64,000 nt of DNA from Haliotis rufescens. Lineage: Eukaryota. The translations under genes and the position numbers were made by a program. The stretch lies in NCBI RefSeq assembly GCF_023055435.1, contig NW_025963791.1, positions 21,638,001 to 21,702,000 of the forward strand, read 5' to 3'. Positions 5,562 through 27,478 of this stretch are shown in pieces; within the stretch, counting starts at the first letter, position 1, and the number at the start of each line of letters is the position of its first letter. A model generated the notes under the pieces. The model was not told the DNA's origin. It searched no databases and was given only the letters and a program-made list of their open reading frames with translations.

Positions 5562-5956
5562 ATGGAAACTTATTGCAGCTCAGATTTGGAAGATGGTGAT
5601 ATTCAGCCAATCACAGAATGGCCTGTTACAGCCAGTGACAATCAGAATGAAACACAGCCAATCAGTGGATGGCCTGTTCAAGTCAACGAAGCACCATATC
5701 TTTCCACTTCCATTAAAAAACAACGAACATGCAAAGAAAATGACAGCAGTGTCACGCAATGTGATTCAACGAGAAGGCATTGTGAAACTTCTGAGAATCT
5801 GAAGAGGAAAAGGGCGAACCCAGGAAACAGAAGCTGTGTGATGTTGGCAAGAGCTGCCCTAGCAAGATGGTGGAGACAAACAGGAAAATATTCAATCCCA
5901 GTGTCAGATCTACCACAGACTCACAATCCAAACACCCTCCTACACTACATCTCAAG
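5562..5956 (+). CDS. JmjC gene coding exon 1 (low-complexity N-terminus, LKRKR basic motif)
   Basis: Lies within ORF 5433-5960; donor AG|GTAGGT at 5957 joins in phase to 7195. Confidence 0.65.
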
Positions 5957-8900
5957 GTAGGTAAAACATGGTGATCGGAACAAGTGAAGTTAATGGTATG
6001 GACCATGATAATATCTTGTCTAATGAAAGATCAGTGCAGAGCTCCATATTTCTGCATTTCTGATGTGTATTTTACGCAGATACGCAGCTTATCTGGAGCT
6101 CAGATCAGTGTTCACCTGTAATCCACCAGTGGGGATTCTGGGTAAGAATATAGAAACCTATGCTTGCCGTGAGAGTCGACTTAAGGGATAGGGTGGTCAG
6201 GCTTGGTGATTGCATGTCGTATCCTTTTTGTGTAGATTAATGCTCATGATGTCAATCAATGGATTGTCTGGTCCAGACAATTATTTACAGACTGCAGTCA
6301 TATAGCTGGAATATTATATTGCGGAGTGTGGCATCAAACACCAAACTGACCAGATGCTTAGATAATTGCTTTCTTCATTGGAGAAAACACTCGGCTAACA
6401 TGTTCCCATACTACAACAACTGCCTCACCCCTCATGTTGATATTGCAGGAATTTTACTGACTGCAGTGTAAAACATCACTCACTCACTCACTGACACTTA
6501 TTACTTAACATCAGTAAAACTGTTTATTGCCAGTTGAGATCCAATTCAATTAAAGGGATGTGTCCAATTTTATCATCCTCATATGTGCCGTATATTATTA
6601 TGATTATATTTAAGATTAATACATTGAAGTTGCAGTACATGTTTGGAATGACCTCTACCATCCACCCCAGATATGACACGAGTGGACACACACACAAGTG
6701 TCAAGTGAAAAATACTTGCCCTTAACGTTAAGTATCTGTGAATTGCGTACTAAGTGTCATGTGAGTTTATGGGTAAACATCTTTTTTTTTATTACCCTAA
6801 ACATTTTAAATGCTAAAGTAGGTTAAATGTTTTTGAATAAATATGAATATTCTTAAAGCCTTTGCACTTTTACCGTGTATAATTTGTCTTGATGAAATAG
6901 CAGCCTAAAATGTTTCCTATCCATTTCTAACATTACTTTCATACGAGTGAGTGAGTATGTTTTTTTGCCCCTTTTAGCAATAGTCCAGCACTCTCACGGC
7001 TTGGGACACCAGCAATGGGCTTTAAACATTGTACCCATGTGGGGAATCGAACCTCGGCCGTCGGCGTGACAAGTGAACACTTTAACCACTAGGCTACCCC
7101 AGCGCCCCTATGTTTATATGAAGCACTGAACTAAAATGAGTTTTCTTTAAATTTTATTTACTGGTGGTGAAGCATTTCGTGAACATTTTTTCAGATGCCG
7201 ACCAGGTGTGGAGTTTTTGAAAAGCCAGAGAAACAAGTTGGAGATACTATTAGACCTTGGAGAAAGGGACGGGGAAGTCTATGCTGCCTTGGGAACTGTG
7301 GAAGAAAGCCTGGGCAATCTCACAAAGGCAGAACAGCATCTGAAACAAGCTCTCACAGAAGACCCTGATAGTATGCTATTGTTTTCTTTGTATTTGTTTG
7401 TTTGTGTGACGGTGGTCTGTAAATAACCAAGTCTGGTCCAGAGCATCCAGTGATTGACATCATGAGCACTGAACCACACAATTGGCATACGATGACATGC
7501 ATCAACCAAGTCAGCGAGCCTGACCACTCGCACTGTTAGCCGCCTCCTACTGCATCTTCCCAAGACAAGGGAGTAAACTGACTGTAAAAGTCTAGTTTCA
7601 CCCTTGCCGAACTAGGCTGGAATTTTGGTGTTATGTTTTGGCTGGACTAACGAATTTGTGCATAATCCAATCAAAATCGCTGGTGTGTAGACTGACATGC
7701 AGATTTCTGTCGATTGCAGGATTTGCAAAGCATGTGTATATGGTGTACCGACAACTTACCGTCAACAGATTTTCCAAATCTTGTGATCACGTGATTTAAT
7801 GCATGATCAGATCGTCTTCACTGGGTTACACCATTTTATTTGAAGCAAATGCAGGTGATATGAGAGGTGGAATCTGATTGGTCAATAGGCGGGACCTAGA
7901 AGGGACAAAACCTGTAAGAGCCACTGGTGGCGTTAAGATCGAGCCTGGTACAGTCAGTTAACTCCCCTGTCTCAGGAAGATGGCTTCCAGTGGCTATTGA
8001 GGGCCAGAATAGGTGGATGCAGTGGATTTCAGCACTAATTCCCTGACTGTTTCAGACAAGGAATACCGATGGCACCTGCACAAGGTGGAGAGGCAAGTGC
8101 AGGTAAAGCAGCAGCAGGACAAGATGCTGACAGAACTTGCTGGGCACAAATTGGAACTCAGACCTATCAAACAGGTGAGAGTATTGGATGTAATAGACAT
8201 TTTGAATATCACATTTTTTCTGATCAGCTTTGAATCTGAAAAGGAAAATCTCTAAATTTTGTGGAGTATCATTCCTTATATGTTTTCAGGAAAGGTTTGA
8301 AATTAATATTTAATTTAAAAAGAAATTCTCTTTAAATTGTCCCTAACAAATTTCTTTATAAGTTCACTCATAAAAAGAAAATTGATGATATTTGAAAGCC
8401 GAAACAACAACTCAATTCCCTTTCAGGTGAAGCGAGTTTCAGCAAGAGGTCTGTCCATGCAAGAGTTTTTCTATGCCTTCGCTGCAACCAGTACACCGGT
8501 GGTCATCACGGACTTAGTGGACAAGATGACCTCTGTCCCCTGGACATTGCAGCACATCAGAGATGTGGCAGGTAACATTCATTTCCTTGCTATCAATCTC
8601 ACTAAACTATATCTATACATGGTGAAACCCTGTTGAAAGTCATTGTCAGCAAGGCACATGAATTGTCCCGTAAAGGTAGTGACCAGCTGATAAGTTGCTA
8701 GGAGCTAACGACAAGTTTTTATGTTGCAATTTCCTTCATAGGAAACAAATATATTTTGATGTTGATTTTTCTGTTTATGTTGGTTGGTTTGTTTGTTGTT
8801 TAACGCCGCACTAAGCAATATTCCAGCTATATGACGGCGGTCTGTATAATCGAGTCTGTACCAGACAATCCAGTGATTAATATCATGAGCATTGATCTAC

Positions 8901-11900
8901 GCATTCGGGATACAATGACATGCATCAACCAAGTCAGCGAGCTTGACCACCCGATCCCTTTAGTTGCCTCTTACGACAAGGATAGTCGCCTTTTACGGCA
9001 AGCATGGGTTGCTGAAGACCTATTCTACCCCGGATCTTCAGGTTATGTAAGCTGGTTTCATATGATGATAAAAAGAGAAGGACAAAGTCTGTTGTTGTTA
9101 ATGTATCTCTCTTCTTTAGGTGAAGGGGCGGTCGGCTAGCCTAGTGGTTAAAGCATTCACTTGTCACGCCGAAGACCCGGGTTTGATTCCCGACATGGGT
9201 ATAATGTGTGAAGCCCATTTCTGGCGTCCCCCACGGTGATATTGCTGGAATATTGCTAAAAGAGACATAAAACCATACTCACTCACTCTTTAGGTGAAGT
9301 CGGAGTCACCCTGAAGAAACCGGTGGATGGGTCTGTTGAATGGGCAGGGCTTGAGGAGGGGGACACTGTGACCGTGGGAGAATACATAGACCAGACCCTG
9401 ACCCCCAGGGGCACAGAGAGGCAGGGTGAGGGGAGTGTTCCCTCCGTGCAGTACCTGTTTGATTGGAGCCTCCCCCTACACTGCCCCAGGCTGGTGGAGG
9501 AACTCTCTGTACCCAGGTATTTTGCAGGTAGGATTTCATAATTGAGAATTGTTTAAATGACATCTGAACACCGCCTAGAGCAAATCATTTAAAAGTTAAA
9601 GATGCTCTTGGATTACCAGTATGTTTAGTCAAATTCTACCAACTTTGACTTTTTATTTCAGCGGGTGGCGATTCTTGGTAGAGTAGGTGCTAGGTATCTC
9701 ATGCTTGTTTTGCCACACTCTGCAGTATTCCAGCTATGTGATGGCTGTCTGTAAATAACAAATCCGGACCAGAAAATCCAGTGATTGACATCATGAACAT
9801 CAATCCACACAATTGGGATACGATGACATGCATCAACCAAGTCAGCGAGCCTGACCAAACGATCCCATTAGTCGCCTATTACGACAATCATAGTCGCCTT
9901 TTACGGCAAGCATGGGTTGCTGAAGACCTATTCTACCCCAGATCTTCACGGGTGAACAGGATAAGGTGGTTACAATGTGTGACCTGGCTCATTGTGTGTG
10001 TGTCAATCATGCCCGCATGGTGTGAATCACTGCTTGTGAGTCGACACCTGGTTTCCTTGAGTCAGACTTGAGTATTCAGACCAATGTGATAAAGCTAGAA
10101 TACAGATAACAACGGCATAAAACAACATTCACTCATGCCGGTGGATGTGCAGTATCCATAAGGCTGCATCCAATGAATGATTATTTTCCTCGACCACCCT
10201 CTGTGACAGTGTGTGTGTGCTGCAGGTGACCTGCTCCAGAGGACCAGTGGAGGCAGCCTGTACCAGGACAGTTGGCCCAGTCTGTTCCTGGCCCCCGCAG
10301 GGCTCTGCAGCCAGCTACACATCGATGCCTTTGCATCCAACTTCTGGATGGCTCTCTTCCAGGGCAGGAAACGGTACGTGGAAATTGGAATCACGTTTCT
10401 AGATTGATCATCTCATCCCAGCATCCATTCACTTGCCTCCCTCTGTTCACCATCTTGGACCTTGACCTCATAGTCGTAGTCCTCAGGTCGCTTTTGTGAA
10501 AAATAATAAAAAAGGTGTCAACTTTCAAAGGATATGACAAGGCTTCATCTCAAAAGACGTTTGAAATGTTTTTATCAAAGTTGGTATATATTTACTTTTG
10601 AAGAGAATCCTTATTGTGGAAAGTTTTGTAATTGTAATAAGTCAGACATATGTCCAGCAGTGTAGAATTGCCTAAGTTGTCTCAAGAGAGTCACACTTGG
10701 TGTGATTTCATTGCAGCAGAAGTCCCCAGTACCCCATGATTCTTTTAAGAGCATAAATAGGCATTGGTCGGTGATAATGGCTGCCGAGTATAAACAGAGG
10801 CGTGTTCAGGAGGGCGGGCGGGCGCTCGCGATATTACGCGAGCGCGCGCTGCTGAACACGGCTTACCGCGCGAGCGCACACGTGTACTCGCAATCGAGCC
10901 CAAGAGGTAGTTCACCTCGTAATCCAAGATGGCGTCGCACATTGAACAAATGTTTGCCTTTGGCGAGAATGAAACCGATGTCAATAGAATAATCTTTTAG
11001 ACAAGATCTACCATCAAAAAGTTATTTTTGCATTTTCAATATATTGACCCGTGATGATCAGGGAAGACAATAGGTCTTCCGCAACCCATATGTTTGCCGT
11101 AAGGATCGAGTGATAAGACTCGCTGACTTGGGTGATGCATGTCATCGTATCCCCATTGCACAGACCGATGCTCATGTCGATTGCTGGATTGTCTGGTCCA
11201 GCACAGGGACATGTAACTAATAATAAAAATAAACACTTTGTTATCATGAACATCAAAGTATGAACCCATCAAACTTGTGATGAAATTAAATGTGTGAATC
11301 TATGACACTTGTGGACAGGGCTGTTTTGATTCCCGGTGACGCCATTTTGGATGCTGTGCCGCGAGAGCGAGTACGCGCCTCCTGTTCAGAAAGGCGTGAT
11401 ATTGCCTCACTGTACTCTCGCACGGTCGCTCGCCCTCCTGAACACGCCTCAGGTCATGTATGGGTGACTATAACGATACAATATGGTGTGTTGTAGATGG
11501 ACCTTCTTCAGTAGAGGTGACGTGGCCTCTCTGTACCCACGGTACTTTCACTCCATGGACCCGACATTTGATGTCGACTTGACCTCGCCTAACCTCGAGA
11601 CCCATCCTCTGATGTCCTTGGCCCAGCCTCTGCAGTGTGATCTCAAACAAGGTATCATCAAAATGTTCCCATTACACAGATTGTTGTTACAGTCGTCCTG
11701 AAGACTGGAACGTTATGTTCAATAAGGAGGATTCTGGGTAGGCCTCCATCTTGTGGAAAGAATAACTGTAGTACTAATGAGTACATAAAGTTCCCAACAA
11801 GCATGGCTGAGCGTAATTATCGATCGTGTTTAGAATGTGACACTTTATAGGTAAATTTTTCACAAACATAATTTATGAAGCATGGATTATCAATTTTAAT

Positions 11901-13258
11901 GAGGTTTGTATTTAATATTAGTGTATAAACATTTCAGGTATTCTGTGACAGATTTCTATCGGTATTTGCTGTACACGGGTGTCACTGCATACCACTTTCA
12001 AAGAATGTTGGTATGAGGGTTGGCCAACCACCTTTTCTCATCTTCCCTAGTCAAGGGAGTTAACTGACAATCAGAATCCACCCATGCCTAAACGAAGCTA
12101 GAATTGTTGAGTTCTGTTTTGGCTAGACTAACGAGTCTATGCATCCTCCAATTAAAATCATGTAACGAAATTGACATGCGGTTCATTCACATGGATTTAA
12201 AACTGCAGATTTAGGTCGACTGTAGGATTTGCAAAGGATGCGTATTGGCAACTGGGCATCAGCAGATATTTTCCAAATCTTTTCATGTTTTTGCTCATGT
12301 GATTGATCGCATCTTCGATCATCTTGAATGGGCGCCACCTTTCCGTTTCAAGCAAATGCAAGTGATATGAGAGGTGGAATCTGATTGGTCAGTAGGAGGG
12401 GATTAAAGGGACATAACTCTTAAAAGCCACTCGGGGCGCTACGATCGAGCCCAAAAAGTCCAGCCTTGTTCAGGCAAAGGTGGAAACTGGACTTTTCAAG
12501 TCAGTTAACACCCTTGCCTCGGGAAGATGACCTTTTCTATCTCTTGGATTTGGATCTTGAAACCGCAGCCTAATATAATTGTCTTAATGGCAACTAGCTG
12601 AATCTGTGAATACACAACGCCATTTAGAAAGTGGTCAAATGTAACAAATGTTAAATTATGGATGAACCTTTCTCAGTATAGTACAAATTCTAGTACTTTT
12701 TCCTAAATGGCATTGTGTGTTCATTGTTGTGTTCCAATTTACTTTAGAATTTGTTCTTAACTAAGAAACTGTTATCCCAAATATAACATTTTTTATAACT
12801 GAGTCAGGTGGTCAAGCTTCATGAATTGGTTGATTGTGAGTCTTTGTACTCTGTCAGCATGGGTCCCTGTATGCTCATGATATCAATCTCTGATTTGCCT
12901 GGGCCAGAATCCAATATAAACCAAGACTGTTAATCAAACTTTTTCTCCTACAGGTGAAGTTCTGTTCGTCCCAAGTGGATGTCCGCACTATGTAGAGAAT
13001 CTTGAGGCATCTGTAGCCATCTCCGCAAACTTTGTAGACCTTTCTAATCTCTCGGCTGTGAAAAACGAGCTGAAGGTCAATGCCCTTGTAGACCCCCGAG
13101 CAGATGACCTCTTGAAGCAGCTTGAAGACCCCAAGTTTCCACAAAGTATGGACAGTACTATCAAGGAGTTGCCATGGCAACAGTTCAAGTTTTGGAACCT
13201 TGATAACTATCACATGTTTGATATCACTGCTGAAAGTGTTGCAGGAAATAAAACCTGA
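5562..13258 (+). CDS. TPR-like + JmjC-domain 2OG/Fe(II) oxygenase (JMJD6/JMJD4-like), spliced: join(5562-5956,7195-7370,8056-8174,8427-8571,9294-9527,10226-10373,11497-11651,12954-13258), 558 aa
   Basis: Manual splicing gives GT-AG introns with matching phases (2,1,0,1,1,2,1) and a 1677-nt open frame ending at TGA 13256-13258. Motifs: LSMQEFF..F....TPVVITD (JmjC-proximal), YLFDWSLP, SQLHID (HxD, 10318-10326), WMALFQGRKRW, GEVLFVPSGCPHYVENL..SVAISANFVD (third His 12986-12988). The 5' end is less certain: ATG 5562 directly follows a TTCAG acceptor-like site, so an upstream exon may exist. Confidence 0.9.
6135..6345 (+). mobile_element. retroposon family D, diverged (intron 1)
   Basis: ggggtagaata...tgcttgccgtgagagtcgact...tatagctggaatatt. 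Confidence 0.7.
6945..7107 (-). mobile_element. SINE family A (intron 1)
   Basis: gagtgagtgagtatg...ggaatcgaacc...accactaggctacccc. Confidence 0.85.
7195..7370 (+). CDS. JmjC gene exon 2 (TPR-like: VYAALGTVEESLGNLTKAEQHLKQALTEDP)
   Basis: ttttttcag acceptor and gtatgc donor; fits the TPR pattern LG..Y/E..LG....A...L..AL...P. Confidence 0.88.
7410..7550 (-). mobile_element. retroposon family D fragment (intron 2)
   Basis: Matches the family D body; truncated where the TIR element begins. Confidence 0.75.
7553..7982. mobile_element. non-autonomous TIR DNA element (MULE-like family), copy 1
   Basis: Imperfect 32-bp TIR catcttcccaagacaagggagtaaactgactg / cagtcagttaactcccctgtctcaggaagatg; body homologous to 12039-12529; no TSD visible here. 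Confidence 0.75.
8056..8174 (+). CDS. JmjC gene exon 3
   Basis: tgtttcag acceptor, CAG|gtgaga donor, in frame (NKEYRWHLHKVERQ...PIKQ). Confidence 0.88.
8427..8571 (+). CDS. JmjC gene exon 4
   Basis: ccctttcag acceptor, G|gtaaca donor; VKRVSARGLSMQEFF...TPVVITD is typical of the region preceding JmjC domains. Confidence 0.92.
8785..9041 (-). mobile_element. retroposon family D, near full length (intron 4)
   Basis: Close match to the other family D copies, (AAAC)n-type tail. Confidence 0.88.
9125..9286 (+). mobile_element. SINE family A inserted at the exon 5 splice acceptor
   Basis: ggggcggtcggctagcctagtgg...ccatactcactcac; 12-bp TSD tctttaggtgaa at 9113-9124 and 9287-9298. Confidence 0.93.
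9294..9527 (+). CDS. JmjC gene exon 5
   Basis: ctctttag acceptor (the SINE's right TSD copy), G|gtagga donor; YLFDWSLP...VPRYFAG. Confidence 0.92.
9700..9953 (-). mobile_element. retroposon family D (intron 5)
   Basis: Rc of the family D consensus, ending gatcttcacgggt. Confidence 0.85.
10226..10373 (+). CDS. JmjC gene exon 6 (HxD metal ligands)
   Basis: tgcag acceptor, CG|gtacgt donor; WPSLFLAPAGLCSQLHIDAFASNFWMALFQGRKR. Confidence 0.95.
10798..11449. mobile_element. PIF/Harbinger-like non-autonomous element containing a nested family D fragment (~11047-11200)
   Basis: Perfect 19-bp TIR aggcgtgttcaggagggcg / cgccctcctgaacacgcct; 3-bp TSD CAG at 10795-10797 and 11450-11452. Confidence 0.8.
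11497..11651 (+). CDS. JmjC gene exon 7
   Basis: ttgtag acceptor, G|gtatca donor; WTFFSR...LQCDLKQG. Confidence 0.92.
12039..12529. mobile_element. non-autonomous TIR DNA element (MULE-like, 9-bp TSD), copy 2
   Basis: TIR catcttccctagtcaagggagttaactgac / gtcagttaacacccttgcctcgggaagatg; perfect 9-bp TSD accttttct at 12030-12038 and 12530-12538. Confidence 0.82.
12607..12723. repeat. small inverted-repeat element (MITE remnant)
   Basis: tgaatacacaacgccatttagaaa / ttcctaaatggcattgtgtgttca, 21/24 complementary. Confidence 0.5.
12954..13258 (+). CDS. JmjC gene terminal coding exon (distal His ligand)
   Basis: ttttctcctacag acceptor; GEVLFVPSGCPHYVENL...GNKT*. Confidence 0.93.
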
Positions 13259-13500
13259 TGAATCTATTGCATTACTGGTCCTCTTGTATGTGCTTGTATA
13301 TTTGTTTTCAGAGTTGCAGAGGTTATTGAGTACTGATACCCACAAAATTTCAAAATCACTCAGATGAGGTGAACTTTCACAGTCGTCCTGACACTCTTGA
13401 ATGATATAATGAGGTCATGGGATTCTGTGATAACTGAACCCAAATGGTTGTAAGAATATGTTGTAAGAACAAAACACAACAGAATTTGATCAATCATAAT

Positions 13501-13601: not shown

Positions 13602-13869
13602 AGACGTTAAAATATGGTACTTGTTGCTACCCTGTCTGGCGCCCGGCAAGGGGCTAAAACAAGGACTGGTCGGCTCGGAGTCAGTATACTGTGTCTGAGT
13701 AGGGTATTCATGTTCAACTTCGGCATGGTTTCTCAGTGAGCTAGCACTATACATCGGCACCAGTCTGGACTAGTACAAGCAGCCACACAAACACACACAC
13801 ATGCATGCACGTCGCTATATAAGTGCAATAATCTTGGACGCGACGTTAAACCCAATTTCACCTCACCTC
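13602..13869 (+). mobile_element. SINE family B, 5'-truncated
   Basis: 13-bp TSD acatgtgtattca at 13589-13601 and 13870-13882; (CACCT)n tail. Confidence 0.9.
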
Positions 13870-14273
13870 ACATGTGTATTCATACTCCGTTAAAAATCCA
13901 CATGATTTTTAGGATCCCATCAATTGACATTCTGAATCGCAGCCTGGTACCGGTACCCGCGAGCTCCCTATGTATTGAGACATATAAGAAAATGGTTGTT
14001 TATTACTTACCAGGGCAAACATATCACGGTTCATGAAAATCATATGTGCACTAGGGTCATATCACGTCACGAGACAACAGTGTATTGTTTCCGTCATCCG
14101 GACGGATGTCATTCAAATTTTATAGTGAATATAGCTGACGTTTGTTGACGCCATTCCACAAATTGTTGTCCCGTGGCTGTTGAGACTTGCTGTTCTTATA
14201 GGTAATCACTCAAATTCTTTTCTGTATATAGACATCTTCGGTAATAAATAGAACATTGTCTCGGTGTTCATGC

Positions 14274-26962: not shown

Positions 26963-27110
26963 AGCTTCCTGGGAGTACACAACCAATGCGGCCTGTGAGG
27001 CGCTAGAAGGTTAACAGTCTCATCACCACCTCATCCTACCGGGTACCCATTCACTGCTGGGTGTACAGAGGCGAAAACAGTCACTTGCCTAAGGAGGCAC
27101 CACATGTGCT
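26963..27110 (-). mobile_element. SINE family E fragment
   Basis: ccgggtacccattcactgctgggtg and cttcctgggagtac motifs; homologous to 21355-21430. Confidence 0.45.
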
Positions 27111-27478
27111 ACATGTGTTTTAGTGTGAGCCAGGACCGAAGCTTCAGAAACTCTCAAGAGTCAAGCTGACGAACGCGGTCACCATTCTACTTCGCTCCTC
27201 GACCAACATTGCTAAACTTCACCTGCGTGCTGTACACAGGACCATGTGCCGCCACATATTAACATTAAGTAATTGCCTGATTGGGTTCATGGTTCTGATG
27301 AGGAAACTGTAAGGTGGCTGGCTGTACGTGTGTCGTGGTTTCCATCTGTACACATTCATAAGAAGGCCGGTGGGTTTCTTCTGGAGGACCAGTGTTGTAC
27401 TGCACGTTCTTGGCAGGTGCAAACTTTCACACAACTTACGTCGTGGCAAATTGTGTGGAAGGATTTTATTTGGCTTTT

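Follow-up and report, generated by a model that had tools for sequence, protein, structure and literature searches.

A SINE sits on a splice acceptor of an abalone JmjC gene and has probably been absorbed silently through the duplicated acceptor

The window, meaning the whole 64,000-nt stretch of Haliotis rufescens DNA analyzed here, carries an 8-exon gene for a protein with TPR-like and Cupin_8/JmjC parts (Table 1). Pfam places Cupin_8 (5.6e-20) and JmjC (3e-7) above cut-off and TPR weakly, below cut-off, and the nearest solved structures are JMJD5 and then JMJD6, with H431, D433, and H512 (numbering of RefSeq protein P0007, Haliotis rufescens) aligned with the HxD...H of JMJD5. Judged by its Cupin_8/JmjC domain and HxD...H motif, the gene product is a JmjC 2-oxoglutarate oxygenase by predicted activity. 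Exon 5 is single-copy in the genome (G000), intron 4 is 722 nt long, and alignment stays colinear over the exon 4/exon 5 junction in the orthologues of a snail and of three other abalones. TPR-like plus JmjC family members are named only "uncharacterized," and the N-termini of the automatic models P0001, P0003, and P0007 differ upstream of a common METY-like start. The likeness of an unnamed protein, P0004, seems confined to the limits of exon 5, hinting that both intron positions of this exon may be old. GTGAAG lies 3′ of three of the seven acceptors (8427, 9294, and 12954) and two more junctions read AG/GT, so that most junctions of the mRNA rebuild a donor-like 9-mer. Introns 4 and 5 also hold a second, very abundant repeat family (window about 8780–9040 and 9710–9955) that is strongly represented in RNA-type runs, and repeats with CACCT units at their ends, a feature reported for Haliotis MESC SINEs, lie at about 1015–1365 and 13620–13875.

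Table 1. Features of the JmjC gene and of the SINE at its exon 5 acceptor (window positions)
Feature	Position	Strand	Remark
Gene	5562..13259	+	8 exons
Exon 1	5562..5956	+	
Exon 2	7195..7370	+	
Exon 3	8056..8174	+	
Exon 4	8427..8571	+	ends at donor GT 8572–8573 (phase 1)
Original acceptor region	9098..9119	+	TTAAT (A 9101, -19), pyrimidine tract, AG 9118–9119
First TSD copy	9113..9125	+	carries old AG/GT
GT..AG unit	9120..9293	+	174 nt: TSD end, SINE, TSD start
SINE	9126..9286	+ (sense)	tRNA-derived, 161 nt
SINE tail	9277..9288	+	three ACTC units; last shares TC with TSD start
Second TSD copy	9287..9299	+	carries acceptor in use, AG 9292–9293
Exon 5	9294..9527	+	234 nt, or 408 nt with 9120 as its start
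Exon 6	10226..10373	+	holds HxD metal ligands
Exon 7	11497..11651	+	
Exon 8 (last)	12954..13259	+	holds distal His and stop

The exon 5 acceptor is present twice, once on either side of a SINE. The repeat tctttaggtgaa given in the preliminary description was found at 9113–9124 and 9287–9298 and at no other site in the window on either strand, and the exact target-site duplication (TSD) is 13 nt, with its last G ambiguous with the leading G run of the SINE. The insertion point lies 5–6 nt into exon 5, and excision of 9120–9293 gives back the pre-insertion junction exactly. When 30 family copies were taken in genome order, 12 had an exact TSD of 8–15 nt, as against 9 of 870 mismatched flank/tail pairs, and so the 13-nt repeat is a normal TSD of the family. 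Both AGs and the TAG at 9137–9139 in the exon 4 frame are where the preliminary description had put them, and its reading of the two frames holds as well. Use of 9120 gives a 284-residue product that stops before H431, D433, and H512, upstream of the HxD...H, while the acceptor copy at 9292–9293 restores the JmjC frame: the 8-exon model through 9294 translates to P0007 at 558 of 558 residues from the METY start. Under the NMD rule, a stop is recognized when it lies more than 50–55 nt before a downstream junction; the stop at 9137 precedes the next junction by 388 nt and the last by 691 nt, so the 9120 isoform falls within the rule for both.

The old acceptor had been credited with the stronger pyrimidine tract, which is true of its T count (10 as against 7 of 18) and untrue of its pyrimidines, which number 14 of 18 in both. 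The gene's six other acceptors have 9–14 of 18, and the new acceptor is therefore an ordinary one for this gene. The SINE tail had been named as the source of both the new tract and its branch-like CTCAC motifs. It does supply the 5′ part of the tract (9277–9286), but branching probably does not take place at the CTCAC motifs, because their As, at 9281 (-13) and 9285 (-9), lie within the tract and too close to the AG; a merle review gives 20–50 nt as the distance (PMC7349775). Other candidate branch As lie near -35 and -24 of the new acceptor, and a branch-like motif is absent altogether from two of the gene's introns. The old TTAAT was considered as a distant branch point for the new AG and rejected, since the old AG and seven SINE AGs intervene. 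A weak Rfam match to a snoRNA at 9055–9126 (E 0.74) was taken as chance.

The SINE belongs to a very large family, whose exact 20-nt head pattern occurs at at least 28,455 genome sites. Its tRNA-like head (9137–9193) matches Rfam RF00005 with E 0.019 and 22.4 bits, below the gathering score of 29, and ARAGORN found no tRNA gene in the SINE. The in-frame TAG is part of the family head and no new mutation. Compared with the majority sequence of 78 family copies, the copy in exon 5 deviates at 12 of 160 positions (7.5%); the median divergence of those 78 is 3.2%, but they were chosen for a perfect head. A copy so far from the majority points to an old insertion. An ACTC tail of 1–20 units is found in 63 of 108 matched family copies, and it differs from the (CACCT)n tail reported for the Haliotis MESC/Meta SINEs (Hdi, HalSINE1; PMC4758252). 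An acceptor-like motif lies 5′ of 78 of the 28,455 copies and its reverse complement 5′ of 26 (P 3e-7), and with such a preference among so many copies, a hit on a real acceptor is unsurprising. TSDs start with TC, CT, or AC in 8 of 12 cases, which would fit priming on tail microhomology. Three further family copies with 12–13-nt TSDs lie in the window at 27071–27231 and 59238–59398 (both counted on the minus strand) and at 60671–60831. At 9263, 9265, and 9267 the window haplotype and X1, one of the DNA runs considered below, depart from the majority sequence of the family, which adds one AG, out of frame, at 9263–9264; the contigs of two other runs, X5 and X11, cease matching at 9263–9267, and these changes look private to the window haplotype and X1.

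A second insertion of this kind was sought at 78 acceptor-like SINE sites, 45 of which have an AG in the TSD. Exon-like sequence was seen at 1 of these 45 sites, as against 5 of 82 in the background. Pfam gave no match on 33 open frames of at least 25 aa, but neither did it match two true exons used as controls, and so this test was blind. The one exon-like candidate, the single-copy locus L076:590–1010 (G000:C334), has a TSD that copies an acceptor-like motif before a 211-nt open frame with a donor-like GT end, and the one frame tried gave no homologue. With tests as weak as these, no second verified acceptor-copying insertion was found among the 78 candidates. Two pairs of loci on different contigs, L063/L099 and L050/L086, have a common flank and TSD, suggesting insertions into repeats or duplicated segments.

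To ask how the insertion is distributed, DNA runs were compared over 9262–9700, that is, over the 3′ junction of the SINE, in 4 of the 14 runs listed: X1, X5, and X11, which come from three studies of organism A, and X8, from organism B, a second species label. All four, from four studies, have a contig in which the SINE tail, the TSD, and exon 5 follow one another without a break, and these contigs differ from the window at 0 (X1), 8 (X5), 2 (X11), and 7 (X8) positions. Three of the four contigs have 26–28 letters on the SINE side of 9287, below a 31-letter rule, and each of them has, within 31 nt, letters specific to the SINE as well as letters specific to the exon. An empty allele, or a loose end with the old intron, was seen in none of the four runs, though contigs may drop rarer alleles. 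X11 has two exon 5 haplotypes behind a single SINE-linked contig, and the X5 contig has a depth of 41.9, close to that of other single-locus contigs (41–50). The X1 contig has a depth of 10.1, as against 15.5–23.1 in other contigs, so that a second haplotype may be unseen; X1 may be the window's own source. No gap falls over the tail in any of the four contigs, a small sample in which tail length is thus constant. Each of the four runs also has another locus with the tail of this SINE, a near match to the 13-nt TSD, and then unrelated sequence; this locus, which departs behind 9299, is a separate insertion at a similar target.

Variation in the exons tilts toward synonymous changes. Exon 5 variants in DNA are synonymous in 6 of 10 cases (P 0.02–0.04 against an expected share of 0.25–0.30), and those pooled over exons 3–6 in 10 of 16 (P 0.002–0.006 with the same expected share, which is exon 5's site share). 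Of the four exon 5 replacements, three fall where the protein varies from species to species as well, and the last, at 9302, goes back to the Arg of P0001; at this codon, three codons into exon 5, the window has Gly and X5, X11, X8, and P0001 have Arg. Among the exon 5 variants listed for X16, an RNA-type run, three of four (9415G, 9427G, and 9472T) recur in DNA runs.

Acceptor use was followed over 8050–10400 in 4 of the 10 RNA-type runs listed (X15–X18), where "RNA" is a guess, as none of the listed sources is recorded as RNA. These data are assembled contigs of depth 3.5–13 with NMD unblocked; three raw-read runs were left out as size-selected small-RNA libraries, and uncovered intron bins were not counted as evidence. 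Among the matches listed, exon 4 is joined to 9294 in three of the four runs and the fourth ends too early: X17 stops 11 letters after exon 4 and is uninformative. The clearest case is record 8 of X16 (1085 nt, depth 6.8), which runs unbroken through exons 3, 4, 5, and 6 with a join 8569->9292, equivalent to 8571->9294. Record 1 of X15 has 30 letters beyond 8569 that were placed on 9292–9321 by bin depth, as bin 9314–9392 has a depth of 6.27, which is 6.26 with those letters and 5.77 without them. Record 23 of X18, another species label, has the same join, its first 47 letters probably falling on exon 4. Since the spliced contigs continue from exon 4 at the downstream acceptor copy, the SINE is likely removed together with intron 4.

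X15 is of particular use because its record 4 (84 nt, 9238–9321) links the SINE tail to exon 5, which makes X15 a carrier of the SINE, and as it also has the 9294 join, a carrier makes the normal splice. X15 has intron cover at 8682–8760 and 9630–9708 as well, so record 4 may be taken as unspliced RNA or DNA. X15 could be heterozygous, and X16, X17, and X18 may be of any genotype. The poison and rescue paths diverge 6 nt past exon 4, and among the joints listed, no contig in the three informative runs (depth 3.5–7) branches there to 9120; such a search has little power, as a minor, NMD-degraded form would be dropped from contigs. At the end of exon 4, one contig per run explains all of the depth in four of four runs.

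From these observations, we consider it probable that the SINE is an old insertion, silently absorbed into intron 4, with the original acceptor left behind as a cryptic site. Silent absorption was one of the options in the preliminary description, which had proposed looking for spliced RNA at 9294 and for presence or absence of the SINE; the 9294 join in three of four RNA-type runs and the SINE in four of four DNA runs with two species labels both speak for it. The SINE would have inserted by target priming, helped by a TC microhomology that its tail shares with the target, and this would have duplicated the 13-nt TSD, including the acceptor, downstream of the SINE. Exon definition would then choose 9294, which gives an exon of 234 rather than 408 nt with exon 5's own enhancers presumably still beside the new AG, and a nearby branch point on the 5′ side of the tail, perhaps one of the candidates near -35 or -24, would serve it. 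The old acceptor is likely now no more than a minor cryptic site, any leak at 9120 being cleared by NMD with no regulatory role. Exonic Alu insertions in human NF1 are reported to make exon definition weaker, and splicing can then move to a 3′ site downstream of the insertion (PMC3219598). Local folding was rejected as a cause of the choice because the old AG is predicted to be the more open of the two (unpaired 0.79 vs 0.02 for the new one; 0.02–0.30 for the gene's real acceptors). Exon definition is the likeliest cause for the loss of an intact old acceptor with a canonical branch motif. An intact upstream acceptor here loses, with RNA support and in an apparently fixed state, to a TSD-made copy 174 nt downstream, a natural case in which, in a mollusc, exon definition can be weighed against scanning for the first AG, and one that illustrates a way for an intron to grow, with its 3′ end rebuilt from a SINE tail and the protein unchanged.

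Two other readings give the old acceptor an active part. The preliminary description had raised an acceptor switch coupled to NMD. In this reading 9120 would be used appreciably, whether regulated or simply at a substantial level, so that the stop at 9137 and NMD tune gene dose. An intact acceptor with TTAAT at -19 and 14 of 18 pyrimidines, a stop 388 nt ahead of the next junction, and the graded use of two acceptors reported for merle (PMC6091007) all make this conceivable, and NMD would hide the isoform. The X15 contig from SINE to exon 5 could be counted on its side but is explicable as unspliced RNA or DNA, whereas the missing branch 6 nt past exon 4 in the three informative runs (among joints listed), the single contig that accounts for exon 4 end depth in all four runs, and the constant tail, in which no merle-like rheostat is seen, count against it. 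That the two TSD copies are identical gives no hint of selection (chance 0.36–0.47, not significant) and does not help it either, and we hold this switch to be unlikely. Somewhat less likely still is a recursive route, in which the old acceptor would be used first and the rebuilt CAG/GTGAAG donor would then excise the 174-nt SINE unit as a second intron, a failed second step feeding NMD and the ACTC tail both targeting pyrimidine-rich sites and rebuilding the tract. The route has some appeal, since 9120–9293 runs from GT to AG and its exact removal gives the normal mRNA, the harmlessness of an intact upstream acceptor would be accounted for, and the rebuilt donor matches CAG/GTAAGT at 6 of 9 positions (the gene's real donors at 4–7); cryptic recursive exons of Drosophila tend to activate the rebuilt donor (PMC8605326). 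The same CAG/GTGAAG, however, also arises in the normal mRNA where exon 3 meets exon 4 and exon 4 meets exon 5, and that mRNA stays whole in X16; rebuilt donors are reported to be suppressed by the exon junction complex (PMC8605326, PMC6224609, PMC8184009), no intermediate is seen in the contigs, and the new acceptor is needed in either route. If the recursive route were true, this would be a SINE family able to excuse itself at acceptors, and a retroposon would have given rise to a ratchet point at a datable time.

Two more readings dispute the carrier allele itself. The insertion might be a segregating null or weak allele, with the spliced RNA derived from empty alleles, and a count of the 8571->9294 junction does need a genotype because that junction is identical whether the allele is empty or rescued; the individuals behind the RNA may be of any genotype, and contigs can lose a rarer allele. 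We regard this as very improbable, and the null option of the preliminary description is contradicted by the spliced contigs at 9294, the failure to see an empty allele in four of four DNA runs under two species labels, the single-locus depth of the X5 contig, the age implied by a copy 7.5% off the majority, and variants that lean synonymous. That the duplication is an assembly artefact, which the preliminary description had also allowed for, deserves next to no credence: only the repeat nature of the SINE speaks for it, while the 3′ junction is found in DNA runs from four independent studies and in one RNA-type run, and the TSD length is typical for the family.

Within the limited literature covered, no published match to the exact layout closer than merle was found, and none on abalone. 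The Alu insertions in NF1 are likewise target-primed insertions with a TSD at an acceptor, one of them sense, but they are de novo and pathogenic and all affect splicing, whereas the abalone SINE appears tolerated and old (PMC3219598). Introners also take a splice signal from the TSD and leave the mRNA cleanly, but most of them are DNA transposons and create new introns within exons, whereas in abalone an existing intron has gained 174 nt (PMC11282704). With recursive ratchet points the abalone locus has in common an AG/GT in an intron with a downstream acceptor, but known ratchet points lie mostly in long introns and rebuild strong donors, unlike the 722-nt intron and middling donor here (PMC8605326).

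The closest system is dog merle, in which a SINEC_Cf lies at the PMEL intron 10/exon 11 boundary (PMC7349775, PMC6091007). In both, a SINE sits at an intron/exon boundary with a TSD that includes the acceptor (15 bp in merle, 13 in abalone), normal mRNA is made from the downstream copy, and a competing upstream AG would exonize the SINE. The merle SINE is antisense, its competitor AG lies inside the SINE behind the oligo(dT), and the product is in frame, whereas the abalone SINE is sense, the site competing with its downstream copy is the original acceptor, which has a branch motif and a tract of its own, and the outcome would be an early stop. Tail length varies in merle and sets the ratio, while the abalone tail is short and constant in four of four contigs, and the abalone insertion, unlike that of merle, is common to two species labels. 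The abalone SINE works like the tolerated form of merle but shows no variation in tail length, and its layout is a variation on that of the coat-color allele of merle dogs.
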